From positions 1 through 48,634 of the IMG/VR virus record IMGVR_UViG_3300045988_068629: a DNA stretch of 48,634 bases; one strand, 5' to 3'. Within the stretch, counting starts at the first letter, position 1, and each line of letters starts with the position of its first letter. This DNA is from a virus. Both the position numbers and the translations under genes were made by a program. Of the stretch, positions 15,093 through 44,300 are shown one piece after another. Below the pieces are notes generated by a model that made no database searches, was not told the DNA's origin, and saw only the letters and a list, made by a program, of their open reading frames with translations.

Positions 15093-15104
15093 ACAGATAT
15101 AGCC

Positions 15105-15983: not shown

Positions 15984-15985
15984 TC

Positions 15986-16249
15986 ATGGCACAAGTAATC
16001 GACAACGCAAAGGGCTTCAAGGTCATTGAAATGAGCTTGCCCGAATCGGTCAAGGCGTTTGGAGGCATTGGGGTCTGTGATTCGTGCAATCGCGCAGCCT
16101 ACACGGCTTACTTCATCGCGGTGCTGAACGAGGCGTTTTGCCCCTACTGCTACGAGGAGTGGCAAAAGTACGCAACGCGCTACGAAGAGGATGCCGAGAT
16201 TGAGCAGCACAACTTTGAGGTTGCGAAAAACATGCTACGCATAAGATGA
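15986..16249 (+). CDS. Small zinc-ribbon-like protein
   Basis: Contains CDSC...(17 aa)...CPYC. Confidence 0.4.
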   Translation: MAQVIDNAKGFKVIEMSLPESVKAFGGIGVCDSCNRAAYTAYFIAVLNEAFCPYCYEEWQKYATRYEEDAEIEQHNFEVAKNMLRIR

Positions 16250-16992: not shown

Positions 16993-17008
16993 GTGTATCA
17001 CTATAAAA
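16993..17008 (+). promoter_or_regulatory. Conserved box GTGTATCACTATAAAA
   Basis: Lies 10 nt upstream of the ATG at 17019. It is one of six or more copies of this box. Confidence 0.5.
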
Positions 17009-17018
17009 GACAACTATC

Positions 17019-18905: not shown

Positions 18906-19490
18906 ATGAAAGTGTACATCAGTGGTCAGATTAGCGGGCTTGAGTATGAAGATGCCCGCGCGCGCTTTGACAAAGCAGAGGACTTCCTTAAAGGTCTCGG
19001 AGTTGATACGGTCAATCCAATGGACAACGGTCTTCCCGAAGAATCAACATGGATTCAGCACTTGTGCAAAGACTTGGAGCTTCTACATGATTGTAGCCAC
19101 ATCTATATGATTGACGGCTGGCAGTTAAGTCGTGGTGCGTGCATTGAATATGACTTTGCCGTTCGCACCGGTAAGAGCGTGCTGTTTGAATCAAGCATCA
19201 TCAGATGTCAAGATATCGTGCTTCGCGTTACATCGGCTATCCACGAAGTCACGGGGCTAAAGCTTAGCGATTACAGAGCCAGCGGTAGAAAGATGGACGG
19301 CTTCTTTGCTCGCATGATGTTCGCGCACCATTGCCGTCTTGAGGGTATGACATTTTGGGACATCGGGAGATTCATCAACAGGGAGCGCACCTCGGTGATA
19401 CGCACCCTAAATGACTATGATAAAGAGTTCAAATACAACGCTTTCTTCCGCAGTATGGCGAAGAGGGTAGACGAGATATTAAGCCGGTAG
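18906..19490 (+). CDS. DUF4406 (nucleoside 2-deoxyribosyltransferase-like) domain fused to a DnaA C-terminal-type HTH domain
   Basis: N-terminus: MKVYISGQISG...IDGWQLSRGACIEYDFAVRTGKSV. C-terminus: LSDYRASGRKMDGFFARMMFAHHCRLEGMTFWDIGRFINRERTSVIRTL. Confidence 0.6.
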   Translation: MKVYISGQISGLEYEDARARFDKAEDFLKGLGVDTVNPMDNGLPEESTWIQHLCKDLELLHDCSHIYMIDGWQLSRGACIEYDFAVRTGKSVLFESSIIRCQDIVLRVTSAIHEVTGLKLSDYRASGRKMDGFFARMMFAHHCRLEGMTFWDIGRFINRERTSVIRTLNDYDKEFKYNAFFRSMAKRVDEILSR

Positions 19491-19526: not shown

Positions 19527-19541
19527 TGTATCACTATAAAA
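19527..19541 (+). promoter_or_regulatory. Conserved box TGTATCACTATAAAA
   Basis: Lies 10 nt upstream of the ATG at 19552. Confidence 0.5.
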
Positions 19542-19551
19542 CAAAACGAGC

Positions 19552-25142: not shown

Positions 25143-25173
25143 GTGTTTTATAGTGATATAAAGAGTACCTTTG
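25143..25173 (+). promoter_or_regulatory. Conserved box GTGTTTTATAGTGATA followed by a TAccTTTG -7 element (start of the packaging/late module)
   Basis: The box is at 25143-25158 and TACCTTTG at 25166-25173. A second TAccTTTTG lies at 25192-25200, and the ATG is at 25205. Confidence 0.55.
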
Positions 25174-26260: not shown

Positions 26261-26758
26261 ATGGCAAAGTATGGTAAAAAGGTCATTGAGCAGATTGTCG
26301 GGCTAATAAAGTCCGACACATACACCATTGTTGAGATTTGTAGCCAGGTCGGTATCTCGCTCTCAACCTTCCACCGATGGAAAGACGAGTACGAGGAGTT
26401 TAGACAAGCCGTTGAAGAGGCGCATGAAGCCCGAATGCAGTACTTCGTACAAGAGGCGAAGAAGTCGCTCTTGAAGAAGATACAGGGCTACGATGTGACG
26501 GAGACAAAGGTCGTGACCGTGCCAACCAAGGGTGACGAGAAGAAGCCCACCATCAAGGAGCAGACCACAACCAAGAAGCATATCCAGCCCGACACCGCTG
26601 CAATCATCTTCACGCTTGCCAATGGCGACCCCACGAGATGGAGAAATAGACAGACGATGGAGGTTGTCGGCAAGGATGGTAAGGAGCTGTTCAAGGGCAT
26701 GTCAGATGACGAGCTTGACAAGGAGATTGAGAAGCTGGAAAGCAATTTAAAGAAGTAG
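26261..26758 (+). CDS. terS: Terminase small subunit (HTH-type)
   Basis: The N-terminal HTH is IVEICSQVGISLSTFHRWKDEYEEFRQAVEEA. The gene lies upstream of the large terminase. Confidence 0.55.
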   Translation: MAKYGKKVIEQIVGLIKSDTYTIVEICSQVGISLSTFHRWKDEYEEFRQAVEEAHEARMQYFVQEAKKSLLKKIQGYDVTETKVVTVPTKGDEKKPTIKEQTTTKKHIQPDTAAIIFTLANGDPTRWRNRQTMEVVGKDGKELFKGMSDDELDKEIEKLESNLKK

Positions 26759-27114: not shown

Positions 27115-28584
27115 ATGAGCCGAGACGAGAGGGTGAAATACATGCTTGCATTGAAGGAGAGGTTGGTGCGTGAATCACGCACTGACCTTTTGCGCTTTAC
27201 TCTCTCTACGATGCTTACCTTTGACCCCGCTGACTTCCATAGACGGTATTATGGGGTGCTTACGAGGTTTGCCCATAAGGAGATTAAGAAGCTTATGGTG
27301 TTCATGCCCCCTCAGCATGGGAAGAGCGAGGGGAGTACCCGCCGTTTGCCCTCTTTCATCCTTGGTGAGCGTCCTGACACGCGTATTGCCATTGTCAGCT
27401 ACAACGCACCCAAGGCGCGCAAGTTCAACAGAGAGATACAGCGTATCATCGACACCCCCGAATATCAAGAGATATTCCCCGAAACGCGACTAAATTCAAG
27501 CAACGTGACCACCGTTGCCGGCTCTTGGCTTCGCAACGCGGATGAGTGTGAGATTGTCGGGCATTTGGGGGGCTTCAAGACCGTTGGTGTGGGTGGGGCG
27601 CTCACGGGTGAGCCTGTGGATGTGCTTATCATGGACGACATCTACAAGGATGCCAAAACAGCGTGGTCATCTACGGTGCGTGAGGGCGTTTCTGATTGGT
27701 ACGACACCGTTGCAGAAACACGTCTGCACAACAATTCACAGCAGCTTATAGTGTTCACCCGCTGGCATGAAGATGACCTTGCAGGCACGTTGCTACGACA
27801 GCAGGGGGAGTACCACCCAACGGACAATCCCAACGGCTGGGTAGTGGTCATCTACCAAGCTATCAAGCAGGGTGCGCCAACGGACTACGACCCCCGACAA
27901 GAGGGAGAGGCGTTGTGGGAGGAGCGTCACAACATTGAGAAGCTGGAAGCCATCAGAAAGCGCAACCCCCATGTGTTTGACAGCCTATATCAGCAAGACC
28001 CCAAGCCAAGCGAGGGTCTTATGTATGATTCTGGATTTACAGAGTACAACATACGACCAGCCACGAAGTACTGCATACGAAAGGCGTATGTGGACACCGC
28101 CGACACAGGCGCGGACTACCTTTGCGCCATCATCTACGATGAGACAGAGATTGGCAACTACCTTGTTGATGTGCTGTACACGCAGAAGCCGATGGAGTAC
28201 ACAGAGCCAACTCTTGCAAGCATGCTGACGAAGCACCTTGTGCAGGAGTGTGTGGTGGAAAGCAACAACGGCGGTCGTGGCTTTCAGCGTTCGGTGGAGC
28301 GTCAGTGTAGGTTGCTGGGCAATGCCAAGACCAAGTTCAAGTGGTTTCATCAAAAGGACAACAAGGAGGTGCGCATCAACGTCAATTCAGCAGCGGTTCA
28401 GAACCTCACATTTATGCCCCTGGGGTGGACAAAGCTCTTCCCCGAATTCGCGTCAGCCATCAATGGCTACATGAAGGTGGGTAAGAACCCCCACGATGAC
28501 GCACCCGATGCCCTTACAGGAACTATTGAGAAGCGAAAAGCCAAGGCGACGACAGACAACGTGGCGGGCTTATTCGGTAGATAG
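27115..28584 (+). CDS. terL: Terminase large subunit
   Basis: Walker-A-like VFMPPQHGKSE and Walker B VLIMDDIYKD are present, with a coupling motif TRWHEDD. The C-terminal nuclease region includes YVDTADTG and HDDAPDAL. Confidence 0.88.
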   Translation: MSRDERVKYMLALKERLVRESRTDLLRFTLSTMLTFDPADFHRRYYGVLTRFAHKEIKKLMVFMPPQHGKSEGSTRRLPSFILGERPDTRIAIVSYNAPKARKFNREIQRIIDTPEYQEIFPETRLNSSNVTTVAGSWLRNADECEIVGHLGGFKTVGVGGALTGEPVDVLIMDDIYKDAKTAWSSTVREGVSDWYDTVAETRLHNNSQQLIVFTRWHEDDLAGTLLRQQGEYHPTDNPNGWVVVIYQAIKQGAPTDYDPRQEGEALWEERHNIEKLEAIRKRNPHVFDSLYQQDPKPSEGLMYDSGFTEYNIRPATKYCIRKAYVDTADTGADYLCAIIYDETEIGNYLVDVLYTQKPMEYTEPTLASMLTKHLVQECVVESNNGGRGFQRSVERQCRLLGNAKTKFKWFHQKDNKEVRINVNSAAVQNLTFMPLGWTKLFPEFASAINGYMKVGKNPHDDAPDALTGTIEKRKAKATTDNVAGLFGR

Positions 28585-28587
28585 ATA

Positions 28588-28600
28588 TGTCACTATAAAA
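28588..28600 (+). promoter_or_regulatory. Conserved box TGTCACTATAAAA
   Basis: Lies 12 nt upstream of the portal ATG at 28613. Confidence 0.45.
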
Positions 28601-28612
28601 AAAGAGCATGAT

Positions 28613-30070
28613 ATGCCATTAGAGGAGTTATTTGCTGGTAAGACGACTAACGAGATTATCAGCGAGCTAAAAAGCAAGCGTACCACGGCGCAGCCTGACG
28701 CAGAGCAGGCACGCAAAGCCATTGACCCGAAGCTGCATGACATCAACAACCAATTCTTGCGCCCTGACAAGATGGTGCGAGTGGACAATCCAGGCGATGG
28801 TGCAGACAAGGTAATTGACGCAGGTGCAGATGGAGGTTATACACGCATTGAGAAGGTTGCACGCGTGGCTGTTGCGTTGCAGAAGCTAATCATCAACCGC
28901 GCCGTATCGTTCACCTTCGGTAATCCCGTTGCCTACAACGCCACGCCCGAAGGCGAGGGGCAGGAAGCTGTGCTTAAAGCGGTCACACGCATTCTCTACG
29001 ACAACAAGACAACTTCACTCAACCGAAAGGTTGCGCGCAGCGTCTACGGCTTCAAAGAGGTCGCGGAGCTTTGGTATGCCCAAGAGAAGCCCAAGGCGCA
29101 TCAGTCCTACGGCTTCCCTACGAAGTTCAAGCTACGATGTGCGCTGTTTTCACCGATGTTCGGGGACACGCTGTACCCATACTTTGACACCACGGGTGAC
29201 CTTATCGCCTTCTCGCGCGCTTACACCCACGTTGCGTCAGACAAGCAGCGCTTTGACTACTTTGAGACATACACCGAAGATGAGCATTGGTTGTGGGTCA
29301 ATGGGTCGGGTGGCTATGAGGTGGTAGAGGGCTACCCCAAGCGCGTTGCCATTGGCAAGCTACCCATTGTGTACGGGTATCAAGACCACTTCGAGACCCA
29401 GGATGTGGACAGCTTGATTGACCGCCTGGAGAAGCTGCTATCAAACTTCGCAGACACCAACGACTACCACGCCAGCCCTAAGATTTTTGTCACCGGTCAG
29501 ATTAACGGCTGGAGCAAAAAGGGCGAAGCTGGAGCGGTCATTGAGGGCGAGGAGGGTGCTACCATGAACTACGTATCTTGGCAGAACGCCCCTGAAAGCG
29601 TCAAGCTGGAGATTGAAACACTCTTGCGCCTGATTTACACCATCTCGCAGACCCCTGATGTCAGCTTTGAGAACGTCAAGGGCATTGGCGCAATCAGTGG
29701 CACGGCGTTGAAGTTGCTCTTTATGGATGCCCACCTAAAGGTGCAGGACAAGAAGGAGGTCTTTGATGAGTATCTGCAACGCCGTGTGAACGTCATCAAG
29801 GCTTTTGTGGGTCAATTCAACACGACCTTGGAGAACGATGCAGATGCCCTTGAAATAGAGCCTGAAATCACGCCATACACGCTGACCAATGAGATTGACG
29901 AAATCAATATGTGGCTCTCAGCTAACGGCAACAAGCCTCTTGTGTCGCAAAAGGCAAGTGTGATGGGTGCAAATCTGACGCAAGACCCCGAAAAGGACTT
30001 TGAGCAGATACAAGAGGAGGCGAATGCAGACAATTCGTTTGTCATCGGCGAGCCTGTAATCGACGCATAA
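28613..30070 (+). CDS. Portal protein
   Basis: 485 aa, immediately after TerL. The ATG at 28613 (MPLEELFAG) follows the conserved box. The track start at 28496 overlaps TerL. Confidence 0.7.
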   Translation: MPLEELFAGKTTNEIISELKSKRTTAQPDAEQARKAIDPKLHDINNQFLRPDKMVRVDNPGDGADKVIDAGADGGYTRIEKVARVAVALQKLIINRAVSFTFGNPVAYNATPEGEGQEAVLKAVTRILYDNKTTSLNRKVARSVYGFKEVAELWYAQEKPKAHQSYGFPTKFKLRCALFSPMFGDTLYPYFDTTGDLIAFSRAYTHVASDKQRFDYFETYTEDEHWLWVNGSGGYEVVEGYPKRVAIGKLPIVYGYQDHFETQDVDSLIDRLEKLLSNFADTNDYHASPKIFVTGQINGWSKKGEAGAVIEGEEGATMNYVSWQNAPESVKLEIETLLRLIYTISQTPDVSFENVKGIGAISGTALKLLFMDAHLKVQDKKEVFDEYLQRRVNVIKAFVGQFNTTLENDADALEIEPEITPYTLTNEIDEINMWLSANGNKPLVSQKASVMGANLTQDPEKDFEQIQEEANADNSFVIGEPVIDA

Positions 30071-30267
30071 TGGCAAAGAGGGTAGCAAGGTTGTACGAAG
30101 CACCGCAGTACAGGTGCAGAGATTGCCAACATTCGTATGATTGGCAAGAGAAGAATTGGCAAGGGGAGCTTTTCATGTGCCGTTGCAAGTATCATCATGA
30201 GGGGCGGTTTATCAAGTTCCTCAAAGACCCCCAATGTGAGCATTTCACGCTAAGGAACAATGGCTAA
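30070..30267 (+). CDS. Small Cys/His-rich (zinc-binding-like) protein
   Basis: Contains CRDC...CRCKYHH...CEH. Confidence 0.4.
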   Translation: MAKRVARLYEAPQYRCRDCQHSYDWQEKNWQGELFMCRCKYHHEGRFIKFLKDPQCEHFTLRNNG

Positions 30268-32857
30268 AAGACAGAAGACAAAGGCGTTTTCGTTCCAGGG
30301 ATTTGACGCAGCGCACTACAAGACGACAACGGCATACACACGAGCCGTGAACGCCCTGTTTGACAAGGCAACGAGTGACATTGCAGAGGTCGCCCACAAG
30401 GAGACCTACAACCCTGACAAGCCGTTTGACTTTGACGACTACCCGAAAGCCAAGGCGCAACTGCAAAAGGTCGTCAAGGGGCTTGCAAGTCAGATGCAGG
30501 CGGTCATTGAAACAGGGTCACGCCGGCAGTGGCTCTTCGCTTGCCACAAGAACGATGAGTTTATAGCTTCCATCATTGACACGACGAAGCTAACCAAGGG
30601 GCGCTTGCAGAAGATGCAAGACCGCAACTTGGACGCTTTGCAGTCCTTTCAGGCTCGCAAGGTGGGTGGCATGAGCCTTGCTGAGCGCGTGTGGAAGTAC
30701 ACAGAGCAATACAAGGCGCAGATTGAGCTTGGTCTTGATGTTGGGCTTGGAGAGGGTCGGAGCGCGCAACAGCTTTCGCGTGACCTACGGCAGAATCTTC
30801 AAGACCCCAACCGTCTGTTTCGCCGTGTGCGTGACAAGCGCGGGAATTTGCAGTTGTCTAAGGCTGCAAAGGCTTTCCACCCTGGGCAAGGTGTGTACCG
30901 AAGTAGCTACAAGAATGCTATGAGGCTGACGCGCTCGGAGATTAACATGGCGTATCGCGAAGCAGACCACCTACGATGGCAACAGCTTGACTTTGTCGTT
31001 GGCTTTGAGGTGCACCGCTCTAATCACGAGCCTAAGTGCAAGTGTGACCTTTGTGAGCGTCTTGTCGGCAAGTACCCAAAGTACTTCAATTTCAAAGGGT
31101 GGCATCCTCAATGTCTATGTTACGCCACGGCTATCCTTATGGATGAAGACGACTTTGACAAGCAAGAGTTGTCTGACCTAAAGAGCGCACTTAAAGGCAC
31201 GGAGTACCGCAAGTTGTCCGCCAAGAACGAGGTCACGGAGCTTCCCGATGGCTTCAAGGATTGGGTGGCAGAGAAAGAGGCGAAGCAGGCTAATTGGGCA
31301 TCAACGCCCTATTTCATCAAGGACAACTTCGTTGATGGTGATTTATCGAAAGGATTGGTATACGTTAAGGAAGAGAAGCCTCTAACACTACTTGAAAAGG
31401 CGGCAATAAGGCATAAGAATCGTACCACTGAACAGGTGGAAGCCATTCAAAAGCGTTGGGAGGAAAGAAAACAAAAGCACGCTCTTATCAGACAAGAAGC
31501 GCAAGGAGTTCTTGATACAGCTAAGGATTATAGTGAGGTTGATTTTTCTGCATTACAAACCGCTATTGATGCAGGGGATATTGTCAAGATGCAATCTATT
31601 GCCAAGGAGGTTGAAAAGGTTATTGGGGAAATGCAGAAGCAGGAAGAAGCCCTTTCTAATCTTATCCCCAATGTACACGAATGGCACAAAAGGTTTACGC
31701 TTGATGAACTCAAAGGTGTATATAGTGCCGTTGAGAAGAAACTTGCTTCTTGGGATGGATTGACATTGCAAGAACAATCAAAGAAGTTGAAGTTTGAAGC
31801 GGAAGAGTACTTTGGCACAGACAAGTATGGCGCACAAACAAAATACAAGACTTGGGGCGTTGCGCAAGATGCCTACAAGATGCATCTTGATAAAGTTCAA
31901 TACAAGATTGATAAGCAAGAAATTGAAGCGAGTGTTAATCATTCATTCTCTTTTGCTCAAAAGACAAAGAGTGTAAAGGTAAAGCAGCTTGTATCTGAAC
32001 TTCAATCCCTACTTGGAAACAATGCAACGATAGCAGAGCTTCAAAGCAAGGCTGATGCACTAAATAACGAGGTATCAAAGCTGGAAGCTGCTAAACTTGC
32101 CCGCGATTTGAAGAAGTTAAGCAAGCTGGGCAATGGGTTTAGTCCTGATGCCTATGTGCAAGAACGCAAGGATAGAGCGGTGTGGGATAAAGGAAGCGGA
32201 AAGGTTGCTGATAAGACCCTTATTGATGTTGCGGCGAAGAATTGGATTGATTCAACGGAAGATGAAAAGGATAGGGTTTATGAATATACACACCATTATT
32301 GCAATGTGAACGAACCTTTGCAAGGTCGTAAATACCTAAGCCATCAGACAAGGGCAGATTTCGAGCATCGAGTAAACAACATTACTTCTTACATCAGTAA
32401 GAATGTATTGCCTGAAGATATGTGGTTTATGCGAGGTGATGACGGTCTTGGGGTGATTGCTTCACGAATAAAGTTTGCTGGGGGAGAAATGCCAAATGAC
32501 TTGCAAGACTTGGTTGGTATGACTATGCAAGAAGGCGGTTTTATGTCCACAGGTAGCCGCAAGGGCAAGGGGTTCAGTTATAAGCCTGTTGTTATCCATG
32601 TGTATGCGCCTAAGGGTACGCAAGCCGCTTATCTTGAGCCTATCAGTGCATATGGTAAAGGTGCGGGCAGAAAATGGGATGGAAAGCAGAGGTTTAGTAC
32701 ATTTAGCTCTGAACACGAAACGTTGTTCCAACGAGGTACACTAATGCGAATAACAAAAGTGTACCAAGTCGGTGGAAAAACGTTTATCGATTGTGAAGTG
32801 GTAGGGCAAGAGGTTAAGCCATTGTCCTATGTTCCTGATGGCAATATAGGCTATTGA
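30260..32857 (+). CDS. Minor head protein (SPP1 gp7 / Mu F-like domain) with a helical linker and a C-terminal ADP-ribosyltransferase (R-S-E, exoenzyme-type) domain
   Basis: Mu F-like region: RSEINMAYREAD..HEPKCKCDLCERLVGKY..GWHPQCLCYA. ART region from nt 32282 to the end: YTHHYCNVNEPLQGR, WFMRGD, GFMSTGS, VYAPKGTQAAYLEPIS, SEHETLFQRG. Confidence 0.75.
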   Translation: MAKRQKTKAFSFQGFDAAHYKTTTAYTRAVNALFDKATSDIAEVAHKETYNPDKPFDFDDYPKAKAQLQKVVKGLASQMQAVIETGSRRQWLFACHKNDEFIASIIDTTKLTKGRLQKMQDRNLDALQSFQARKVGGMSLAERVWKYTEQYKAQIELGLDVGLGEGRSAQQLSRDLRQNLQDPNRLFRRVRDKRGNLQLSKAAKAFHPGQGVYRSSYKNAMRLTRSEINMAYREADHLRWQQLDFVVGFEVHRSNHEPKCKCDLCERLVGKYPKYFNFKGWHPQCLCYATAILMDEDDFDKQELSDLKSALKGTEYRKLSAKNEVTELPDGFKDWVAEKEAKQANWASTPYFIKDNFVDGDLSKGLVYVKEEKPLTLLEKAAIRHKNRTTEQVEAIQKRWEERKQKHALIRQEAQGVLDTAKDYSEVDFSALQTAIDAGDIVKMQSIAKEVEKVIGEMQKQEEALSNLIPNVHEWHKRFTLDELKGVYSAVEKKLASWDGLTLQEQSKKLKFEAEEYFGTDKYGAQTKYKTWGVAQDAYKMHLDKVQYKIDKQEIEASVNHSFSFAQKTKSVKVKQLVSELQSLLGNNATIAELQSKADALNNEVSKLEAAKLARDLKKLSKLGNGFSPDAYVQERKDRAVWDKGSGKVADKTLIDVAAKNWIDSTEDEKDRVYEYTHHYCNVNEPLQGRKYLSHQTRADFEHRVNNITSYISKNVLPEDMWFMRGDDGLGVIASRIKFAGGEMPNDLQDLVGMTMQEGGFMSTGSRKGKGFSYKPVVIHVYAPKGTQAAYLEPISAYGKGAGRKWDGKQRFSTFSSEHETLFQRGTLMRITKVYQVGGKTFIDCEVVGQEVKPLSYVPDGNIGY

Positions 32858-33186
32858 CCGGGGATTTTATCTTCTGGACAATGGTCATTAGCTATGAACA
32901 AGTATTCATCCATCAGCTTGTAGAAGTTGTTGATACTATCCTTTATTGAATAGGCAGTCTTTCCCCACGAAGTGAACATTACCATAAGCAAATCAAACGG
33001 AATGCCCGGATAGGGTTTTCCGTTTATTTGTTTGTAGTAATCACGTTCCCCCGTGAATTGACCTTGTGAAGACACATACACGCGCTCCATATCCCAAAAC
33101 CAATCCATAGTAGCATCGTTGAAAGGGCTTGCTTCTTGACCGCTGTAATAGCGACATTTCCTTATAAGGGCTTGCTTGTTATCCAT
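32851..33186 (-). CDS. Hypothetical protein translationally coupled to the ADP-ribosylglycohydrolase
   Basis: 111 aa. Its ATG overlaps the ARH stop (ATGGATAA), and its own stop overlaps the stop of the convergent ART-containing gene by 7 nt. Confidence 0.55.
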   Translation of the reverse strand: MDNKQALIRKCRYYSGQEASPFNDATMDWFWDMERVYVSSQGQFTGERDYYKQINGKPYPGIPFDLLMVMFTSWGKTAYSIKDSINNFYKLMDEYLFIANDHCPEDKIPGQ

Positions 33187-33958
33187 ACTTCTGTTTGAAT
33201 TTAGTTACTACATCTTGCATCTCTTTAGGGAGATAGCCCCACGCCTTGTCTTGGATATGCTGAGGTATTCCGTAATAGGCTTCAGCAATACTACCCGTAA
33301 TGGCAGCTATTGTGTCGCTATCGCCACCTATTGACACAGCAAGGCGGATAGCACTTTCAAAGTCTGTGCTTTCAAGAAAGCAAACTATTGCTTGTGGCAC
33401 GGTTACTTGGCAAGTCTCATTAAAGGTGTTTGTGCGTCTGATTTCATCGGAGGTTTGTTGGATATTGTAGCCATACATTTCGGCTACTTCTCGCACTAAT
33501 TGCTTGCCATTCTCTTGATTTTTGCGAGAACACAAAGCCATTTTAATACAGCTTGCCACGCATTCAGCCCCCTTGATCCCTTCGGGGTGATTGTGTGTGC
33601 ACTCTGCGCTTTCCCGTGCAAACTTCATTACGTTATGAGCTTCTGTAATGTATCCACAAGGCGACACTCGCATTGCTGACCCATTACCAAAACTATTGTA
33701 TGGTTTAGGGTTAGGAGAATGAACCCATCGACCGAAAGAACCGCCATAAGCTCCCTTGGGATTTGGGTATTTTCTGCACCATTCAAGTAATGATTGTTCA
33801 AAACTCACTCCTCGCAAGATTGCATCTGCAACGGCAACCGTGCATATTGTGTCATCTGTGAAAGAGCATTCATTTGTGAACATCTCAAAATCTAATCTAT
33901 GTGTATTGTTGAACTCAAAACGAGAACCAACAATATCTCCTATTATTGCACCTAACAT
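33179..33958 (-). CDS. ADP-ribosylglycohydrolase family protein
   Basis: Carries MLGAIIGDIVGSRFEF, SFGNGSAMRVSP, THNHPEG and IGGDSDTIAAITGSIAEAYYG, all hallmark ARH/DraG-family motifs. Confidence 0.88.
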   Translation of the reverse strand: MLGAIIGDIVGSRFEFNNTHRLDFEMFTNECSFTDDTICTVAVADAILRGVSFEQSLLEWCRKYPNPKGAYGGSFGRWVHSPNPKPYNSFGNGSAMRVSPCGYITEAHNVMKFARESAECTHNHPEGIKGAECVASCIKMALCSRKNQENGKQLVREVAEMYGYNIQQTSDEIRRTNTFNETCQVTVPQAIVCFLESTDFESAIRLAVSIGGDSDTIAAITGSIAEAYYGIPQHIQDKAWGYLPKEMQDVVTKFKQKYG

Positions 33959-34004
33959 ATCTATTTCTTTTCTTTTCCCGATTTTGATAGATCTATGCGC
34001 TCCA

Positions 34005-34784
34005 TTACGCAACCCCTCCTTTCTGTTCAAACACCTGGTGCAAGAACCATCTACCGCGCTCTGTCCACACGGTTATGCTGTTCGTGCCTTGCGTGCCGTC
34101 TTGCTTGGTGTATGGGTGCGTGCGGGTCTTGGTGTAGTTTTGCCCGCAATACTTCGCTGCAAGCATCCATTGCCCGCTCTGGCGAATCATGATGCCCCAT
34201 GACTTCAAGAGCGCGTGCAGCTGTTCGGCGGTGCGCAAGTCCAACTCCTTTGCCATCTGTGTAGACGTGTAGGTGTTGGAGGCGTTAAGCACGTTGTCGG
34301 TGTATTCTACCTTGGGCGCTTGCTCTTTCAGCTGCTCGCTTTGGCTTGTGATGACCGCTTGCGCCGCTTGCAGTTGCCGTTGGCTCTTCTCAATGGTGGA
34401 TTGCGCCACCATCAAGGCGCGCGCCATGATAAGCTCGGGCGTGTCTTCGGGCTGTGTGGCGATGTAACCGCCTGTTTGCCTTATGGCTGGTAACACCTCT
34501 TCGCACACCCAATCCTGGAATTGTTCGGCTTCTACTTTGCGAGATTGGAAGATGCACCGGTACAGATTTGCTTCTGTAATGAAGTTAAGTTGCTGGATGC
34601 CTCCATTTGTAGGGGTGTCACTAATAGTTACCCCCTTTTGGCTTAATTGTGTTTTTACCTGTCTTGGATTTTTCAATCCAAGAGCCTTGCACACATCGAC
34701 AAGGCAAAACAGGGGGTCGCCGTTTTCGGTCTTGGATGTTCGCACCTGACCAAATTTGGCACTCTCAAATACTCTCACTTCCAT
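34005..34784 (-). CDS. BRO-N / KilAC-domain antirepressor-like protein
   Basis: N-terminus: VFESAKFGQVRTSKTENGDPLFCLVDVCKALGL (Bro-N). C-terminus: YTSTQMAKELDLRTAEQLHALLKSWGIMIRQSGQWMLAAKY (KilAC-like). Confidence 0.75.
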   Translation of the reverse strand: MEVRVFESAKFGQVRTSKTENGDPLFCLVDVCKALGLKNPRQVKTQLSQKGVTISDTPTNGGIQQLNFITEANLYRCIFQSRKVEAEQFQDWVCEEVLPAIRQTGGYIATQPEDTPELIMARALMVAQSTIEKSQRQLQAAQAVITSQSEQLKEQAPKVEYTDNVLNASNTYTSTQMAKELDLRTAEQLHALLKSWGIMIRQSGQWMLAAKYCGQNYTKTRTHPYTKQDGTQGTNSITVWTERGRWFLHQVFEQKGGVA

Positions 34785-35013
34785 TTGTAGAACGCTTTGA
34801 AAGATGGGCAATAAGAAACGGTATTGCCTTTCCCGTCGTTCTACACCTCAAAGGCAGTGGGTGCATTAACACGCCACACGGGGGTACAATACCGTTGTAT
34901 GTTTTGTTGGGGCAAAAAAATACCGCCAACGTGATGTCAAGCGGTCAATCCGCCTTTGAGGAAGTAGAACACTGCAAATGTAAGCATTCTTTTTGAATGT
35001 GCAAGCGCTTGTG

Positions 35014-35487
35014 TTACTTTGCGAGGTCTTCGCGTCTGAAAAAGATGCCCACGGCTAAGCCTGGTGCGTCTTCCGGCTTTTTGTCGTAGACAAGCACGGT
35101 CTTATCAGATTTCCAAATGTACTTATCTCCGTCTTGTTCTGCTCCTCCATATAGCCCCACAAGCTCGCTGAGGCACGCATCAATAAACGCTGGCTCAACA
35201 TAGAACAGGATGTTTCGTGCAGTGTAATCAACAAACTTCACTCGCACCCGTTTTAGATTCGCTGTATTCAAAACGCAGTAGTCCTCGCTTAGCAGGCATA
35301 GCGCGTTTCCCTTTTCCACTTTGCCGATTAGGTCTAACACGGTAAGGTGTTTGGTTATTGAATCGTTGAGCATGACGGGGTATATCCCACAGCGCTTGTC
35401 AAGATACCCAAGCTCCCCTTTCACCTGTGCATTGGCGAATAGCGTGGTGCAGGCTATTGCTATTACAGCAAGTATAAATCGCTTCAT
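35014..35487 (-). CDS. Secreted or lipoprotein-like hypothetical protein (lysogenic-conversion candidate)
   Basis: The signal peptide is MKRFILAVIAIACTTLFANAQ. The start at 35487 lies 30 nt downstream of a minus-strand TAccTTTG box. Confidence 0.55.
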   Translation of the reverse strand: MKRFILAVIAIACTTLFANAQVKGELGYLDKRCGIYPVMLNDSITKHLTVLDLIGKVEKGNALCLLSEDYCVLNTANLKRVRVKFVDYTARNILFYVEPAFIDACLSELVGLYGGAEQDGDKYIWKSDKTVLVYDKKPEDAPGLAVGIFFRREDLAK

Positions 35488-35517
35488 TGCTTCTCTGTGT
35501 TGGTTGTTTACTACCTG

Positions 35518-35525
35518 CAAAGGTA
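35518..35525 (-). promoter_or_regulatory. Bacteroidota-type -7 box TAccTTTG (minus strand)
   Basis: The plus strand reads caaaggta, upstream of the ATG at 35487. Confidence 0.5.
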
Positions 35526-35711
35526 GGTAAATCAATCAAAGTGCGTGCAACGCACATTCCCCCAAAACAAAGAAATTCATCGCCCTATGTGTGTCAAGAA
35601 ATCGGAGATTTCGCCCCAACACACATATACGAACGTTAGTGAGTATATGGGTGTATATATATATACTTTCCTTTCCTTTTCTTTTCTTTGGATACCAAAT
35701 GCACTGCAAAA

Positions 35712-35922
35712 GCTATGCAATTGCATAACATTTGCATTAAGTATCTGATAATCAGCATACATTTTTGGCGACTTCAATACGCATCACGCCTATTTGTGGG
35801 CTATCCAGGTGCGTGTTTTTGTGCTGTTTTTGGCAACTTTTGCCACCGTGAAAACATGTGTGCATTGCACCTGCTGTAACCTTGCAATGCAATTGCATTA
35901 CAAATGCTATGCAATTGCATAA
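35712..35922. repeat. Three copies of the 12-bp perfect palindrome ATGCAATTGCAT, two within the 17-mer GCTATGCAATTGCATAA
   Basis: The 17-mer occurs at 35712-35728 and 35906-35922. TGCAATGCAATTGCAT occurs at 35883-35898. A related GTGCATTGCAC is at 35859-35869. Confidence 0.85.
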
Positions 35923-35990
35923 GGCTACATCGTGGTCGCCTTGCAGGGTAATTGTGTGTAACTTAACTACAAAAGGGCTGGGCTATTGGC

Positions 35991-36019
35991 GTGTATCACT
36001 ATGAAACAAGCTATCTTTG
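35991..36019 (+). promoter_or_regulatory. Conserved box GTGTATCACTATGAAA followed by a TAtcTTTG -7 element (head gene promoter candidate)
   Basis: The box is at 35991-36006 and TATCTTTG at 36012-36019. The ATG is at 36049. Confidence 0.55.
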
Positions 36020-36048
36020 TAGTGATTTGTAATACAAACCAATTCAAG

Positions 36049-36749: not shown

Positions 36750-37316
36750 ATGGGATTTAAGATTGAGAGAGGTCGAGAGCAACGCACGGTTAAGTGCGTG
36801 CTTCATCGCGTTGCCGACATCCCCGGTGGTGTCGGTGTGGCTGTCGCCAACCTTGGTGGGCGTGTCCTCTACGAGGGTACACCGCTTGGCAAGGGTGCTG
36901 GCGACCTTTACGAGGTCTGCAAGACGGCAAAGGTGCTGACCAAGGCAGAAGCATCAGCAACGACCTACGAAGTTGCCAAGGGGCATCACTTTAAGGTGGG
37001 CGACCGCTTCGCCACGGCAGAATGCAACGGGCAGGAAATCGCGTCTATTGACCGCACTGACGCTGCAAAGGACATCATCACGGTCAAGACGTCGCTTGGC
37101 AAGGTGGTAGCCGCTGGCGCTTGTGCCTTTGAGAGTAAGGGTGCAGATACCAAGCTGAAAGTGACGCCTATTGCTGTTGCAGGGTCTGACCAGGATGTGA
37201 ATCCTGGTGACAACCTCTTTGTGTCTGCATGGGTCGTCGCTGTAGTCCGCGAAGCCAACGCACCAGCAGCGAATGACGCTATCAAGTCTGCACTAAAGTG
37301 CGTGGCGTACGTGTAA
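36750..37316 (+). CDS. Capsid-associated protein (decoration-like, putative)
   Basis: 188 aa, Gly/Ala/Val-rich, between the scaffold and major capsid genes, the position gpD holds before gpE in lambda. Confidence 0.35.
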   Translation: MGFKIERGREQRTVKCVLHRVADIPGGVGVAVANLGGRVLYEGTPLGKGAGDLYEVCKTAKVLTKAEASATTYEVAKGHHFKVGDRFATAECNGQEIASIDRTDAAKDIITVKTSLGKVVAAGACAFESKGADTKLKVTPIAVAGSDQDVNPGDNLFVSAWVVAVVREANAPAANDAIKSALKCVAYV

Positions 37317-37335: not shown

Positions 37336-38439
37336 ATGCTGAAATCACGAATGTTCGGGCTTGACGAGAGCAATCTCCAAGCCGTAATTCATACATACGA
37401 CCTTAAGGATTACTACTATCCCACGCTCTTCCCTATCAAGGAGACGGGGCGCCTTGATTGGAAGATGGTTGAGGCGCAGGCGGGTCTAAAGATTGCCGCT
37501 GACCTTGTTTCGCGAGGTGCGACAATCCCCAAGAAGACGCGTGAGGCTCTTGCGCGCATCCAGGGGGACATCCCTAAAATCGCTATCTCCCGTGAAAAGG
37601 ATGAAGAGGAGCTGACGGAGTATGAGCTGCTTGTGCTTCGCGCCACCAACAACCCTGACCTGAAAGCCCTGATTGACTTTTGGGCAGAGGACACTAAGTA
37701 TTGTTGGGACGCTGTCGCCAACCGCGTTGAGTGGGTGGCTCTTCGCCAAATCTCGCTTGGTAAGGTCACGTTCACCAACTCAAATAACGCGGCTGTTGCC
37801 ACGGAGTACAATGTGGATTATAGCATTCCAAGTGGTCAGAAGGTTGGCGTTGCTACCTCTTACACCGCTGGCACGGCTGGTAAGCCCCTTTCCGTGGACA
37901 TTCCCAAGGCTCTGAAAATCGGTAAGAGCGTCGGTGCGAACTACAAGTTCATGTTCATGAACCCCGACACGTTCCTCAAGTTCGCGTCGCAGGAAGAGGT
38001 TGTCAAGAAGTGCGCTACGCTTGTCGAGAATATGACGGGTGCGGCTGATGCACCTGACCTGCAAACGGTCAACGCCTATCTCGCGAAGAAGAAGGAGCAG
38101 TTTAAGGGTCTTCAGATTATCGTCATTGACCAGGATATCACCATTGAGACGGCTGATGGCGACCGTGCCACCAGCAATCCATTTGAAGATGATGTTATCC
38201 TCTTCTCGGAGAGCAAGGTGCTCGGCACGACCTATTGGAAGCGTCCTATCGACGCCAACAAGATTGCCGGCAGTGTCGCTGAGAAGGTCATGCACGGTCA
38301 TACGCTGATTAAGAAGTACTCTACGGAAAGCCCCGTCACGGAGGTCACAGAGGGTATTTCTAACGTGTTCCCCGCGTGGAATCTTGCTGGTCGTTCGGTA
38401 CTTATGCAGGTATCTGCAACGGCTTGGAATAAGAACTAA
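37336..38439 (+). CDS. Major capsid protein (lambda gpE-like family)
   Basis: 367 aa, in the expected position. The N-terminal pattern YYYPTLFPIKETGRLDWKMVEAQAGLKIAADLVSRGATIP resembles Phage_cap_E. Confidence 0.7.
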   Translation: MLKSRMFGLDESNLQAVIHTYDLKDYYYPTLFPIKETGRLDWKMVEAQAGLKIAADLVSRGATIPKKTREALARIQGDIPKIAISREKDEEELTEYELLVLRATNNPDLKALIDFWAEDTKYCWDAVANRVEWVALRQISLGKVTFTNSNNAAVATEYNVDYSIPSGQKVGVATSYTAGTAGKPLSVDIPKALKIGKSVGANYKFMFMNPDTFLKFASQEEVVKKCATLVENMTGAADAPDLQTVNAYLAKKKEQFKGLQIIVIDQDITIETADGDRATSNPFEDDVILFSESKVLGTTYWKRPIDANKIAGSVAEKVMHGHTLIKKYSTESPVTEVTEGISNVFPAWNLAGRSVLMQVSATAWNKN

Positions 38440-41386: not shown

Positions 41387-44300
41387 ATGGCAAACATTGA
41401 TGGTGGTGCGCTTTCGTTCAAGTCGGTCATGGACAATGACCAGATGAATGAAGCTATTGAGGAGACGTTGCGCAGGGTGCAAGGCTTGTCAGATGCAACA
41501 GTTGCAGGTGGTAAGAAGATGGACAGCGCCTTTGTGCACACCGCTGACGGCATACGTCAGGCGATTTCGCAGATTGGTCAGGCTGTGGACATCCATGAAG
41601 CTAAGCTTGGGGAGCTGACGGGTCAATACGTCCAGCTTAGTGACAAGATTGGTGCAGCCATGGCGTCGGGTCGCACCGACGAAGCGCGCGCCATGAGGGA
41701 GACGCGAAATGCTATATCAGGAGAGATTGCCGTGCGCGAGAAGGCGATTGAAGAGGCGAAAGCCCTTGCCGCTGAGCTTGAAAAGGAGGCACAGAAGCGC
41801 GAGCAGGCAAACAAGCAGGTTGAGGCAAACGCGCAGGCACATCGGTCTTTGCGCGGTCAGATTCGCGCATTGAAAGAGGAGATGGCGCAGCTTGTCTCGC
41901 AGGGTATCGATGAGCAAAGCGAAGCTTACAAGGCGCTTGTAAATGAGCTTGGGAGACTGCAAGACATTCAGGGGGACATTGCCACGCAGGGCAGAATACT
42001 CGCGAACGACGAAGCTAAGTTCCAGGGCTTCATTCAAGGCGTTTCCGGCTTGTCAGGTGCATTTTCAGCCGCCACAGGTGCCGTTTCCTTGTTTGCAGGT
42101 GAGAACGAGAACTTGCAACGTGTGATGACGAAAGTGCAGAGCGTCATGGCTATTGCTATGGGCTTGCAATCAGTTGCACAGACCCTCAACAAGGACAGCG
42201 CTTTTCAGCTTGTCACGCTCAATGGCTTAAAGGAGTGGTGGGCAGGTATCGTAGCGAAGTCCACCGCGGCGGAGGTTGCCGAAACGACTGCAACGGTCGC
42301 CAATACGGCGGCGCGTCAGGCACAGACAGCCGCCACGGTGCAAGGAACGGTTGCACAGGGTGCTAATGCCGTTGCCCAGGGTGCGCAGACCACGGCAGCT
42401 GCAACAGGCACGGTTGCCAACCTCACTCTTGCGGGTGCATTCAGGGCTGTTGGTCTTGCTATTAAGTCAATCCCCGTATTCGGGTGGCTCTTAGCAGGCT
42501 TGTCGGCTATCGTGGCTATCTCTACGCACTTTGCAAGCAAGGCGCGTGAGGCACGCAAGGCGCAAGAGGAGTTTACAAAAGCGATGATTGAAGGGGCATA
42601 CAAGCCAATCGGCAAGCTTGAGGAGCTTTCAGCGAAGTACACCGCCCTTGGCAACAACATCAAGGAAAAGGAGCAGTTCATCAAGGACAACAGAAAGGCG
42701 TTTGACGAACTCGGCGTAGCTGTAACCAACGTTCGCGATGCCGAAAATCTACTTATCAACAACAAGGATGCTTTCATTTCGGCGCAGATTGCCAAGGCAA
42801 AGGCTATGGTGCTTGCTCAAAATGCCTCGGAGAAGATAAAGAAGCAGATGGAGTTGCAGGCTGAGGTGGAGAAGATGCCTGACAGAGTGACCGTTGCAAT
42901 GACCGGTGGTAGTGCGATGGGAGGTTACACGACATCCACGCTGAATAACACCATCAAGGAGAAGAAGCGCAAGGAGATTGAAGCCCTGCAAAAGGAGATT
43001 CGCGAGGACTTCAAGCGCGCAGCCGAAGAAGAAGCAAACGAGTACAACAAGCTCAAAAAGGCGGGTATCAAGAGTGCCGGCACATACGCGCAAGGCACGA
43101 TTGGCGCTATTGAGAAGGCTATTGCAGAGAAGCAGGAAGCCTTGAAGCATTTGAAGCCCAACACCACGGAGTGGAAGAAAGCAAACAAGGAGATTGAGGC
43201 ACTGCAAAAGCAGATAGAGAAGCCCACAAGAAAGCATGCAGGCTCTTCAAGGAAGGAGAAAGACCCCTTTATTGAGCAGCTGGACAAGCGAAAAGCAGAG
43301 TACGAGCGACACAAGAAGTGGCTCAATTCGGGTGATGACGTGCTTATAAAGTCTGCATCAACGGAGTTCAAGGGGCTACTTGCACAGGGTGCGACCTACA
43401 TTGACTATCTCAAAAAGCAACGTGATGAGATACTTTCCATCGATGCTGACAAGCGCACCAAGGAGCAAAACAAAAACCTGAGTGCGCTGAATGACCGCCT
43501 TGCCGAGGAGACAAAGAAGACGGTATTGGAAGCTTTCAATGAAGAGCTTTCAAAGCAGCTCGGCAATGCCAAGACGACGTTGGAAATGCTCAATATCATT
43601 GCACAGAAGCGCAAGGAGCTGGCAGACGATGACAGCGAGCTTGGTAGCGACAAGAAGAAGACGCTTGACGACGCTGATGTAAACGCTGTGCAGAAACAGC
43701 AGGAGGAGACGAAGAAGTTGCTTGAAGACTACGCTTCCTACCTTGACAAGAAGATACAGCTTGACTTGGAGTACAACAACGACCTCGCTCTCTTGGAGCG
43801 TGCGCGCGCCAAGGCAACCACCGATGAGGAGCGCAAGAAGATTGATGCAGCTATCGCCAACCGCGCGAAGCAGTATGCCAAGGATAGTAAGACCTCGGGT
43901 GATAGCGACTTTGACCAGCTGTTGCAGACTTACCGGAGCTTTGAGGAGAAGAAAGATGCCATCATTGAGGAGTTCAGCGAGAAGCGCGCGCGGGCTTTGG
44001 AGCATGGCAATACGGAGCTTGTCGAGCGCCTCAACAAGGCGCAAAACGAAGCATTGTCAAGACTTGCTATTGACGAAATGAAGCTATCCCCCGATTGGGA
44101 GAAGGTGTTTGGCGACCTTGACGAGGTCGGCACAAAGGAGCTGGAACGCCTGCTTGCTTCCATCGAGGGGAAGACCGCCATTCTTGGTGTGGAGCTATCC
44201 CCAGCGGACTTCAAGGCTATTCAGGACAAGGTAAAGGAGCTAAAGGACGAGATACGAGAGCGCAATCCTTTCAAGGCGCTTGCCAAGTCCTTTGGGGACT

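Follow-up and report, generated by a model that had tools for sequence, protein, structure and literature searches.

We identified an intergenic region, hereafter the hub, in a 48,634-nt stretch of DNA from an oral Bacteroidales phage (the window) that is probably a composite control region, with a core that, judged by sequence comparison, appears to be a second, inverted copy of the phage's own origin-type element. The hub has two divergent Bacteroidetes-type -7 boxes at its edges, the inverted element copy on the left and a double palindrome on the right. Within the left part (35586-35742), TGCAA sites and TATCCAAAG are accompanied by a purine/pyrimidine tract, an AT-rich stretch and a hairpin; the double palindrome occupies 35860-35922. 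We favour, with moderate confidence, a putative role as an oriR-like second initiator-binding or origin locus. An earlier note had seen a resemblance to a replication origin in iteron-like sites beside a meltable tract. This resemblance gains support from the inverted initiator-gene copy, from conservation, from recurrence in relatives and from a layout like that of the oriL/oriR pair of Bacillus phage SPP1, which has been studied by experiment.

Among Bacteroidales phages, and that includes the Porphyromonas gingivalis phages recognised only recently, replication origins have yet to be described. The main paper on P. gingivalis phages does not contain the terms ‘origin of replication’, ‘replication initiation’, ‘intergenic’ or ‘palindrom’. 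The locus identified here offers a concrete candidate origin architecture (TGCAA sites, a purine tract, (TA)n, a hairpin and sometimes a DnaA box) that recurs across many uncultured phages. The module could yield a replicon or an initiator pair for Bacteroidales genetic tools.

Sequence elements of the hub

The hub follows a minor head gene (30260-32857) and a set of morons (32851-35487) and precedes a scaffold-like gene that starts at 36049. This gene order agrees with the placement in the earlier note, between a minus-strand accessory cassette and the head genes. Since the leftward gene most likely starts at ATG 35487, the gap extends from 35488 to 36048 (561 bp). It is the largest intergenic region of the genome, as had been claimed, once two unconserved GTG-start ORFs are discounted. 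Small ORFs within the hub shift in length and frame among relatives, and we thus regard none of them as a gene. The following features were identified, with strand given where one was assigned:

17813-17945, plus strand: partner element, in the part of the initiator gene that codes for the linker joining the Lin1244_N and C-terminal domains
35518-35525, minus strand: leftward Bacteroidetes-type -7 box TACCTTTG, from the TAnnTTTG scan
35541-35555: 6-bp hairpin/dyad GTGCGT-GCA-ACGCAC, overlapping the -33 region of the leftward promoter
35586-35627: nested hairpin with a 9-bp outer and a 6-bp inner stem (-9.2 kcal/mol, z -4.0)
35654-35665: (TA)6 run, the longest TA run of the genome
35666-35689, plus strand: homopyrimidine tract of 24 nt, CTTTC-type, mirroring the purine tract at 17861-17888
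35686-35694, minus strand: DnaA-box-like motif CTTTGGATA(C), equal to GTATCCAAAG when read from the minus strand and matching TTATCCACA at 7/9 positions
35696-35740: site 1, with ATGCAATTGCAT at 35715-35726 in a 32-nt extended dyad
35860-35870: small palindrome GTGCATTGCAC, built from the same TGCA-type half-sites
35881-35922: sites 2 and 3, with palindromes at 35887-35898 and 35909-35920, 22 bp apart
35994-36009, plus strand: copy of the recurrent box TATCACTATrAAACAA, immediately 5' of the rightward -7 box
36012-36019, plus strand: rightward -7 box TATCTTTG, from the TAnnTTTG scan, for the scaffold, head-fibre and major capsid genes (ATG 36049)

Four exact copies of ATGCAATTGCAT are present in the 48.6 kb (35715, 35887, 35909 and 17835), against 0.01 expected, and none of 100 shuffled sequences contained four. 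The motif is confined to the hub (n = 3), where a perfect 12-bp palindrome had indeed been noted three times, and to the linker of the Lin1244_N initiator gene (n = 1). Two of the hub copies are embedded in the 17-mer GCTATGCAATTGCATAA (35712-35728 and 35906-35922), and the previously noted near-palindromic 20-mer is present at 35883-35902. GTGCATTGCAC is present as well, one base from where it had been placed. Genome-wide, TTGCAT/ATGCAA half-sites form clusters solely at 17.6-17.9 kb and 35.7-35.9 kb. Site 1 has additional outer TGCAA/TTGCA half-sites one helical turn from its palindrome. Regular spacing is limited to sites 2 and 3, which as single-stranded DNA could form a hairpin with a 12-bp stem (-13.6 kcal/mol, z -3.7).

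Left of site 1, both the (TA)n tract and the pyrimidine tract of the earlier note were recovered, as (TA)6 and as an uninterrupted homopyrimidine run at 35666-35689. Only four purine or pyrimidine tracts of at least 18 nt exist in the genome; one is the hub tract and another adjoins the 17835 palindrome. The TA/pyrimidine stretch is the second or third least stable duplex segment genome-wide (top 0.02-0.04% of windows) and is a candidate DNA-unwinding element. The DnaA-box-like motif at its right end contains one of the two genomic occurrences of TTTGGATA, the other being at 17856. GTATCCAAA and CTATCCAAA each match TTATCCACA at 7/9 positions in our own comparison with the consensus; no perfect DnaA box was found in the window, and perfect boxes occur only in relatives.

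Folding confirmed the two hairpins described in the earlier note. The 35541-35555 hairpin (-6.3 kcal/mol, z -3.8) is also terminator-like on the minus strand. The nested hairpin occupies the same position as the conserved hairpin of the in-gene module.

A blastn search with the hub against 50,697 phage records gave no match, and a scan of the 40-nt core against genome contigs matched no isolate genome. No tRNA or tmRNA was found, and Rfam gave no match in the window at the gathering score; at E ≤ 1, the only matches were chance miRNA-like ones on the inverted repeat (E 0.26-0.93). Cumulative GC skew, proposed earlier as a check, rises monotonically with its sole dip over the minus-strand genes and carries no origin signal; this pattern makes it uninformative for origin mapping.

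The partner element in the initiator gene

The initiator gene (17462-18163) encodes a Lin1244_N protein assigned to the PHROG ‘replication initiation protein’, and it is followed by a gene for a DnaC-like loader. The partner element in its linker-coding part consists, in order, of TGCAA repeats, the palindrome at 17835-17846, TATCCAAAG at 17856-17864, the purine tract at 17861-17888, GATATAG and a hairpin at 17921-17944. The hairpin (z -5.6) is maintained by covariation in six lineages, and the in-gene tract falls in the top 1% of least stable duplex.

The left half of the hub repeats the parts of the partner in the same order on the opposite strand. Its alignment with the reverse-complemented in-gene site scores 53, compared with a genome-wide null maximum of 31, and a second hub alignment with that site scores 43 against a null maximum of 35. 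In a genome search, 17814-17884 (minus strand) matches 35666-35726 (E 4e-8) and 35881-35919 (E 2e-5).

By analogy with lambda ori and SPP1 oriL, the primary element is plausibly the linker-coding segment 17813-17945, an assignment that forms part of the overall reading we lean towards. Of the two loci, only this segment shares lambda ori's position in the linker-coding middle of an initiator gene; the hub is intergenic. The initiator has no lambda O Pfam match. Neither the initiator nor the phage DUF4406-DnaA-IV protein (18906-19490) gave a match in PDB sequence searches, and no literature connecting DUF4373 with replication was found.

Conservation and recurrence among relatives

The earlier note had proposed that a palindrome not conserved in related phages would speak against its interpretation. 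In 10 close relatives (82-93% identity), the sites are nearly invariant and the flanks variable: the fraction of variable columns is 0-8% in sites, tract and box versus 45-83% in the flanks. The site 1 region varies in 2/55 columns, and sites 2 and 3 in 0/18 and 1/14, respectively. The pyrimidine tract varies in 2/24 columns, with C/T changes exclusively, and the length of (TA)n differs among relatives. Both hairpins show compensatory changes. For 35541-35555, a T:A to C:G change is present in 2/8 sequences, and for the nested hairpin, both helices are retained in eight relatives with one U:A to A:U change.

These patterns bear on whether the hub could be a non-functional recombination scar, that is, a now decaying fragment of a replication module that was either acquired together with the moron cassette or recombined beside it, with palindromes that persist through recent duplication or gene conversion alone. 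In favour of a scar, the moron segment is mosaic among relatives and two distant relatives (L011 and L012) lack the hub insert. The absence from L011 and L012 also indicates that the insert is not essential for this phage type. A scar does not account for the site-specific contrast in conservation, the restriction of tract changes to transitions, the compensatory hairpin changes or the amplification of the palindrome to three copies, and we consider it quite unlikely.

Syntenic relatives with 45-77% protein identity contain the same four-part module of sites, purine tract, (TA)n and hairpin. It is found in the initiator gene (G007 and G009), next to ant (G012), in a hub 5' of the scaffold gene (L045) and in an immunity-region gap (G015, G017, G019 and G026). 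The module parts travel with the sites in at least six independent contexts, and the TGCAA/ATGCAATTGCAT motif occurs in 60 viral contigs.

About 100 nt 5' of the scaffold gene, relatives also carry TGCAA repeats or the palindrome, with a DnaA box alongside; for G007-G010, this box is a perfect TTATCCACA. The sequence comparison suggests that the right half of the hub is a doubled version of the site that relatives keep at this distance. The G005 provirus (L011/L016) has no ori-like copy common to its initiator gene and its scaffold-upstream gap; the two share the recurrent box only.

The palindrome is absent from P. gingivalis phage005b. The scaffold-upstream region of this phage instead matches its own initiator-gene linker over 50 nt at 90% identity (E 6e-14). 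The sequence in the hub slot thus differs from that of the window, yet it again copies the phage's own initiator-gene linker. The two phage005b loci have three 11-bp direct repeats besides the 50-nt identity. An ACAAA-type iteron common to both loci was also considered and dropped, as it showed no significant clustering. The phage005b copy takes in part of the sequence coding for the initiator C-terminal domain, as a gene fragment would, which is a point in favour of a scar. Against a scar, analogous copies are present in three lineages including SPP1, whose oriR binds gp38. The occupation of the same slot by a second origin-like copy in the Firmicutes phage SPP1 and in Bacteroidales phages with unrelated initiators suggests that the position before the scaffold gene is itself selected. 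Such selection could act on a theta-to-sigma switch, for example, or on the coupling of replication to head-gene expression, a model that is still a proposal even for SPP1.

Candidate functions of the hub

Promoters were called by scanning for the TAnnTTTG -7 motif; a sigma-70 promoter scan was discarded because it was at shuffle level and is not meaningful for a Bacteroidales host. The leftward -7 box is predicted to drive the moron cassette of the minus strand, which opens with the gene starting at ATG 35487. Close relatives have retained this box, and so have L011 and L012, which are distant. At the position of the rightward box, a TAnnTTTG box is also present in L006, L011 and L012. The recurrent box TATCACTATAAAACA, which is part of the hub, has 7 matches versus 0.54 expected, is retained in relatives and is likely regulatory.

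The earlier note had offered a late-gene regulatory hub as an alternative to an origin. This holds in part: the hub is bordered by two divergent promoters, and in relatives one site has been retained in the interval between the two. It is possible, if rather improbable, that the hub is purely a transcriptional control region whose palindromes are upstream transcription-factor sites coordinating the divergent moron/ant and head promoters. The factor could come from phage or host and might be the initiator itself; the in-gene copy would then be autoregulatory or incidental. The -7 boxes that flank the hub are conserved even in distant relatives, and the likely regulatory role of the recurrent box fits this interpretation. 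In G007-G010 and G026, a single palindrome lies midway between two promoters, at roughly -60 and -90, and other relatives have single palindromes 15-25 nt 5' of start codons at other module boundaries.

The arrangement in the window fits transcriptional control less well. The distance from a hub palindrome to its nearest -7 box is 91, 113 or about 190 nt, and none overlaps the core promoter of a flanking gene. The separate dyad at 35541-35555 is the sole one that overlaps the leftward -33 region. The immunity region (9-11.5 kb, with the HTH_3 repressor gene at 10036-10527) has no palindrome match at ≤2 mismatches, and the CI/Cro arrangement, in which the same operator lies between repressor and cro-like genes, is not found. 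Purely transcriptional control also leaves unexplained why the tract, (TA)n and hairpin travel with the sites, why DnaA boxes are adjacent and why phage005b has a copy of an unrelated initiator-gene segment in the same slot.

Similarity to the P22 immI region is limited. As in immI, an antirepressor gene (ant, encoding Bro-N and KilAC) is located in a separately controlled late-region cassette, with palindromes upstream. In contrast to immI operators, the palindromes do not overlap the leftward -7 box but lie about 190 nt from it, a small repressor gene of the Mnt/Arc type was not seen next to the hub, and the same palindrome is also present in the initiator gene.

Returning to the origin-type interpretation, Lin1244_N initiator dimers may bind the palindromes, and the adjacent box may be occupied by DnaA of the host or by the DUF4406-DnaA-domain-IV protein of the phage. 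The resulting complex could open the (TA)n/pyrimidine tract, whereupon the DnaC-like loader would load the host helicase and the hub would act as a second origin. Alternatively, the complex could form a tight nucleoprotein block. A gp38 block of this kind has been proposed at SPP1 oriR, where stalled forks would prompt the switch from theta to recombination-dependent concatemer replication. Because the hub lies between divergent promoters, the complex may also be coupled to moron and head-gene transcription.

Some observations count against an origin. The sites have palindromic symmetry, unlike the direct repeats found in SPP1 and in iteron plasmids. The cumulative GC skew lacks an origin signal, the DnaA-box likeness in the window stops at 7/9, and L011 and L012 do without the insert. 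Moreover, several relatives have single palindromes in promoter-upstream gaps, such as between the divergent promoters 5' of the scaffold gene or after a MazG-like gene, so that a transcription-factor site looks equally plausible there.

SPP1 provides the closest layout. Its oriL lies inside gene 38, and its oriR is part of the moron segment flanked by genes 7 (minor head) and 11 (scaffold); both contain repeats and an AT-rich unwinding element and are bound by gp38 (PMC6316719, PMC3485210). Used as a positive control for the self-similarity test applied to the window, SPP1 showed 60 nt at 85% identity between gene 38 and 4889-4948, so that the test recovered this pair. In both phages, an initiator-gene element is repeated at a distant late locus, and the second element is in a moron-bearing segment between minor head and scaffold genes. 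Both loci of each phage combine repeated sites with an AT-rich unwinding stretch, the initiator-site role being putative in the window. The gene order is also the same (small terminase, large terminase, SPP1-type portal, minor head, morons, scaffold and major capsid), with minor head, morons and scaffold corresponding to SPP1 genes 7, 8-10 and 11, and a RecT-type recombination module is present.

The SPP1 parallel is an analogy rather than membership because the initiators are not homologous: gp38 has a Phg_2220_C domain whereas the window's initiator has Lin1244_N (BLASTP E 0.96). The sites are 12-bp palindromes of TGCAA half-sites here and direct AB-box repeats in SPP1. The hub copy is inverted and follows the morons, whereas the SPP1 copy precedes them, and the hub adds the homopyrimidine tract, the DnaA-box-like motif and the hairpins. 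The hosts also differ (Bacteroidales versus Bacillus).

A more speculative and rather doubtful extension is that the TGCAA/ATGCAATTGCAT sites form a genome-wide network of one initiator-type protein in many oral and gut Bacteroidales phages, with the 34-nt double palindrome of the hub serving as a programmed hairpin or fork-barrier site. The 10-nt spacer between sites 2 and 3 (35899-35908) reads TACAAATGCT in the window, whereas some close relatives have it flipped to the reverse complement, AGCATTTGTA. Such flipping suggests that the palindrome pair has undergone inversion or template switching more than once. The phage's SbcC-like ATPase, nuclease and RecT module could process a stalled or hairpinned fork to a double-strand end, and such an end beside the head genes might bring about the theta-to-concatemer switch. 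If true, the fork-barrier network would be a version of the proposed SPP1 oriR model that is defined by sequence and that arose independently around an unrelated initiator.

The comparison with lambda ori concerns the partner, which is located mid-gene in the initiator linker, and its putative initiator sites are followed by an AT-rich, strand-asymmetric tract. Lambda O is a dimer (PMC7466680), and dyad-symmetric sites would, by analogy, fit binding by an initiator dimer. Unlike lambda ori, the hub lies outside any gene, the in-gene element has one full palindrome and half-sites instead of four 19-bp iterons, and the helicase loader is DnaC-like rather than lambda P.

Iteron-plasmid origins of the P1, F, pSC101 and RK2 type contain DnaA boxes. 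Similarly, the hub has a putative initiator-site cluster beside a DnaA-box-like motif and a candidate AT-rich unwinding region, and relatives have inverted-repeat versions of the sites near promoters. The hub differs in that it has no array of at least three direct repeats of 17-22 bp (its sites are palindromes), and its DnaA-box-like motif is a 7/9 match, perfect boxes occurring only in relatives. The window is also a phage rather than a plasmid, and the rep gene is not adjacent to the hub.

A packaging site, the other alternative of the earlier note, gained no support. It is highly improbable that the hub is a pac or cos site whose palindromes the small terminase subunit binds. Structured non-coding DNA of this size at the head-gene boundary would suit this role, and the small terminase subunit (26261-26758) has an HTH domain. 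However, about 9 kb separate the hub from the small terminase gene upstream of it, and pac is usually in or beside that gene, as in SPP1, where it is at gene 1. A packaging site also leaves the initiator-gene copy and the immunity-region copies of relatives unexplained. The terminal repeat of the record reflects circular assembly, and a tail gene crosses its ends.

Gene map and promoters around the hub

The window is a complete IMG/VR virus record of 48,634 bp. In gene order it is syntenic with Porphyromonas gingivalis phage005, and the major capsid proteins of the two are 80% identical; one replication protein of the window shares 88% identity with an Alloprevotella MAG protein. Together these matches identify the host as an oral Bacteroidales bacterium. 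Promoters of the Bacteroidetes type, with the -7 motif TAnnTTTG, are expected in such a host. The non-coding gap that we call the hub lies among the following features:

26261-26758, small terminase
27115-28584, large terminase
28496-30070, SPP1-type portal
30260-32857, minor head protein fused to an ADP-ribosyltransferase
32851-35487, minus strand, moron (accessory gene) cassette: unknown gene, ADP-ribosylglycohydrolase, Bro-N/KilAC antirepressor and 157-aa protein of unknown function
35518-35525, minus strand, leftward -7 box TACCTTTG at the gap edge
35742 down to 35586, read on the minus strand, left module, between the promoters
35860-35922, right cluster: a small palindrome, GTGCATTGCAC, and a pair of full ones at a 22-bp distance
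36012-36019, rightward -7 box TATCTTTG at the gap edge
36049 (start), scaffold-like gene, after the gap
36750-37316, head-fibre-like gene
37336-38439, major capsid gene

Both divergent -7 boxes are kept in distant relatives with short gaps (contigs L006, L011 and L012). For the leftward ORF at 35014-35535(-), the ATG at 35487 (MKRFILAVIAIACTTLFANA...) is the most likely start codon; the -7 box lies some 30 nt upstream of it. The product matched no PHROG or Pfam family, and its N-terminus resembles a signal peptide by eye.

A recurrent box, TATCACTATrAAACAA, has seven matches against 0.54 expected (2625-2640(-), 16996-17011, 19529-19544, 25143-25158(-), 28588-28603 and, just before the rightward -7 box, 35994-36009). 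It sits at module boundaries, variably placed and oriented relative to TAnnTTTG -7 boxes, and may be a regulator site or a 5'-leader element. Distant relatives carry related boxes; P. gingivalis phage005b has GTGTTTTAATATAAAACA three times.

Composition and conservation of the hub

All elements that the earlier note named are present in the window sequence. The palindrome ATGCAATTGCAT, described as occurring three times in the gap, does so in exact copies (sites 1, 2 and 3 at 35715, 35887 and 35909), and a fourth copy lies at 17835, giving four where 0.01 are expected. The (TA)n tract is (TA)6, the longest TA run of the genome; the pyrimidine tract spans 24 nt in a genome with only four R/Y tracts of at least 18 nt. 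The TA/pyrimidine stretch ranks second or third in duplex instability, and the two proposed hairpins fold with z about -4. Small ORFs within the gap are not conserved among relatives, searches of the window for Rfam families and tRNAs found none, and its GC skew is uninformative.

The gap is composite. In minus-strand order, the left module runs from site 1 through GTATCCAAAG, a purine tract and (TA)6 to the nested hairpin. In site 1 the palindrome is embedded in a 32-nt extended dyad whose outer TGCAA half-sites lie one helical turn off. As single-stranded DNA, the two full palindromes of the right cluster could form a hairpin with a 12-bp stem (-13.6 kcal/mol, z -3.7).

We compared ten hub versions from IMG/VR and metagenomes (82-93% identity). 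The palindromes are conserved, as the earlier note had required: variable columns number 0/18 in palindrome 2, 1/14 in palindrome 3 and 2/55 across the box and site 1. The tract has 2/24, whereas the stretches between conserved segments have 25/30, 53/119 and 43/71. This contrast between sites and flanks contradicts a decaying recombination scar, which is an improbable account of the hub. A putative pac site is less probable still, as the position of the hub lends it no support. The hub is a real, conserved and non-random feature.

In these close relatives the tract has changed only between C and T and so stays homopyrimidine. Each of the three hairpin helices persists, with two compensatory pairs; because the relatives are few and partly recombinant, this covariation support is modest. 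The 10-nt spacer separating palindromes 2 and 3 (35899-35908), compared with homologous positions in L007, L124, L125 and L130, occurs in both orientations, as TACAAATGCT or its reverse complement AGCATTTGTA. Orientation does not track overall similarity of the relatives, and the flipped spacer points to inversion or template switching that has recurred at a hairpin or cruciform.

A partner element in the initiator gene

Gene 17462-18163 encodes the initiator (Lin1244_N; PHROG 'replication initiation protein') and is followed by a gene for a DnaC-like helicase loader. The fourth palindrome lies inside the initiator gene, where the linker joining the two domains is encoded. CTATCCAAAGG comes next, then a 28-nt purine tract, then GATATAG and finally a strong hairpin (z -5.6); the parts are arranged as they are in the left module of the hub. 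Two local alignments between hub and in-gene segment reach scores of 53 and 43, where the genome-wide null maxima are 31 and 35, and a genome search recovers the same pair (E 4e-8 and 2e-5). TTTGGATA is confined to the hub and the in-gene element, as are half-site clusters. The relevant features are:

17921-17944, in-gene hairpin just after the purine tract, with homologues in G001, G004, G007, G009, G012, G013 and phage005b
18906-19490, DUF4406 (nucleoside deoxyribosyltransferase-like) domain fused to a DnaA domain IV-type DNA-binding domain, after initiator and loader

The in-gene hairpin is maintained in six lineages with differing stems (ACCGC/GCGGT, ACCGT/ACGGT, AACGC/GCGTT, AGCGG/CCGCT), and the encoded residues differ where this DNA fold is kept. 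The DUF4406-DnaA domain IV protein is conserved just after the loader in all syntenic relatives, with PF08299 recorded on most of its 96 homologues, and is a candidate for the protein that recognises the TATCCA-type box.

The part of the initiator gene coding for the N-terminal domain holds a second TTGCAT/ATGCAA half-site cluster at 17617-17645 (GCATGCAAAAGCATTGCATTTGCATTGCAC); L027 and L031 have a full palindrome at the homologous codons.

In phage005b we found no copy of ATGCAATTGCAT. Yet in the 200 nt that precede its scaffold gene, a purine-rich AT tract and a hairpin match its own initiator-gene linker at 90% identity over 50 nt (E 6e-14), and three 11-bp direct repeats lie beside this linker copy. 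Since phage005b copies its own, different linker, it too obeys the rule that an element of a phage's own initiator gene is duplicated before the scaffold gene, despite the different sequence. An annotated 69-aa 'hypothetical protein' (L013, PP754928.1, 30255-30464, minus strand) overlaps the repeats and linker copy; its translation is low-complexity, so this CDS is probably spurious.

Wider relatives and the dual-origin reading

Scanning IMG/VR for TTGCAATGCAATTGCAT gave 60 contigs; many are syntenic relatives, at 45-77% protein identity. The recurring sites are of two kinds. The full module has four parts: TGCAA sites, a purine tract, an AT-rich stretch such as (TA)n, and a hairpin. The window clade, G013 and L019 have it in the linker of the initiator gene, G012 next to the antirepressor gene, and L045 in a hub that precedes the scaffold gene. 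Four others, G015, G017, G019 and G026, have it in an immunity-region gap; the initiators of G015 and G026, the two examined, have a different C-terminal part without the in-gene module. The linkers of G007 and G009 carry direct repeats TGCAAaTGCAATGCAA, then ATATCCAAAGG and the tract. As the module also occurs in non-coding gaps, the tract travels with the sites, which rules out mere coding of a Lys/Glu-rich linker.

The minimal site lies between divergent promoters, about 100 nt ahead of the scaffold gene. Here the palindrome or a threefold TGCAA repeat adjoins an AT-rich stretch and a DnaA box (perfect TTATCCACA in G007-G010, 8/9 in G015). In G007-G010 (L084/L087/L089/L099), TTATCCACA lies 4-5 nt from the TGCAATGCAATTGCATTGCA palindrome, with a 40-nt AT-rich stretch adjacent, and the combination looks like a minimal origin-like unit. 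The right cluster of the hub corresponds to this site in doubled form. At a few further module boundaries, relatives carry single palindromes. An unrelated 74-kb viral contig (L052, G030) has five exact ATGCAATTGCAT and many near copies within 200 bp (43123-43320), an iteron-like array of the same motif.

Single sites between promoters in relatives favour a purely transcriptional role, which we consider unlikely: it leaves unexplained the cassette of tract, (TA)n and hairpin, the DnaA boxes and the phage005b copy. A CI-type operator is excluded because the window's immunity region contains no palindrome copy.

We lean, with slightly better than even confidence, towards a second origin or oriR-like barrier bound by the initiator and a DnaA-type protein. 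The palindromes would serve as binding sites for initiator dimers, and the adjacent box for DnaA or the phage DnaA-IV protein. The in-gene element would be the ancestral origin, lambda- or oriL-like; an origin in mid-initiator gene is the classical lambdoid arrangement (PMC7466680). The hub could then be a second origin, opening at 35654-35689 with helicase loaded via the DnaC-like protein, or an oriR-like nucleoprotein barrier. Lying between two promoters, it may also couple to moron and head-gene transcription.

By analogy, the hub would best be read as a variant of the SPP1-type dual-origin arrangement. In SPP1, oriL lies inside initiator gene 38, oriL and oriR both consist of repeats and an AT-rich unwinding element bound by gp38, and gp38 at oriR has been proposed to stall forks and so switch replication from theta to sigma (PMC6316719, PMC3485210). 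Our self-similarity test applied to SPP1 recovers this pair (gene 38 nt 383-441 versus 4889-4948; 60 nt, 85% identity). The SPP1 record runs portal (gene 6), minor head (gene 7), morons (genes 8-10), scaffold (gene 11) and major capsid (gene 13), and its oriR occupies the slot held by the hub in the window, between the minor head and scaffold genes. The initiators, however, are unrelated, and the likeness is thus a functional analogy rather than family membership. Relative to SPP1, the palindromic TGCAA sites, the unrelated initiator and the Bacteroidales host are new.

The window also encodes a recombination module (12773-16986: SbcC-like ATPase, RecT-like annealing protein and metallo-beta-lactamase-fold hydrolase), comparable in role to SPP1 genes 34.1 and 35 and relevant if the hub is a fork barrier or hairpin site.
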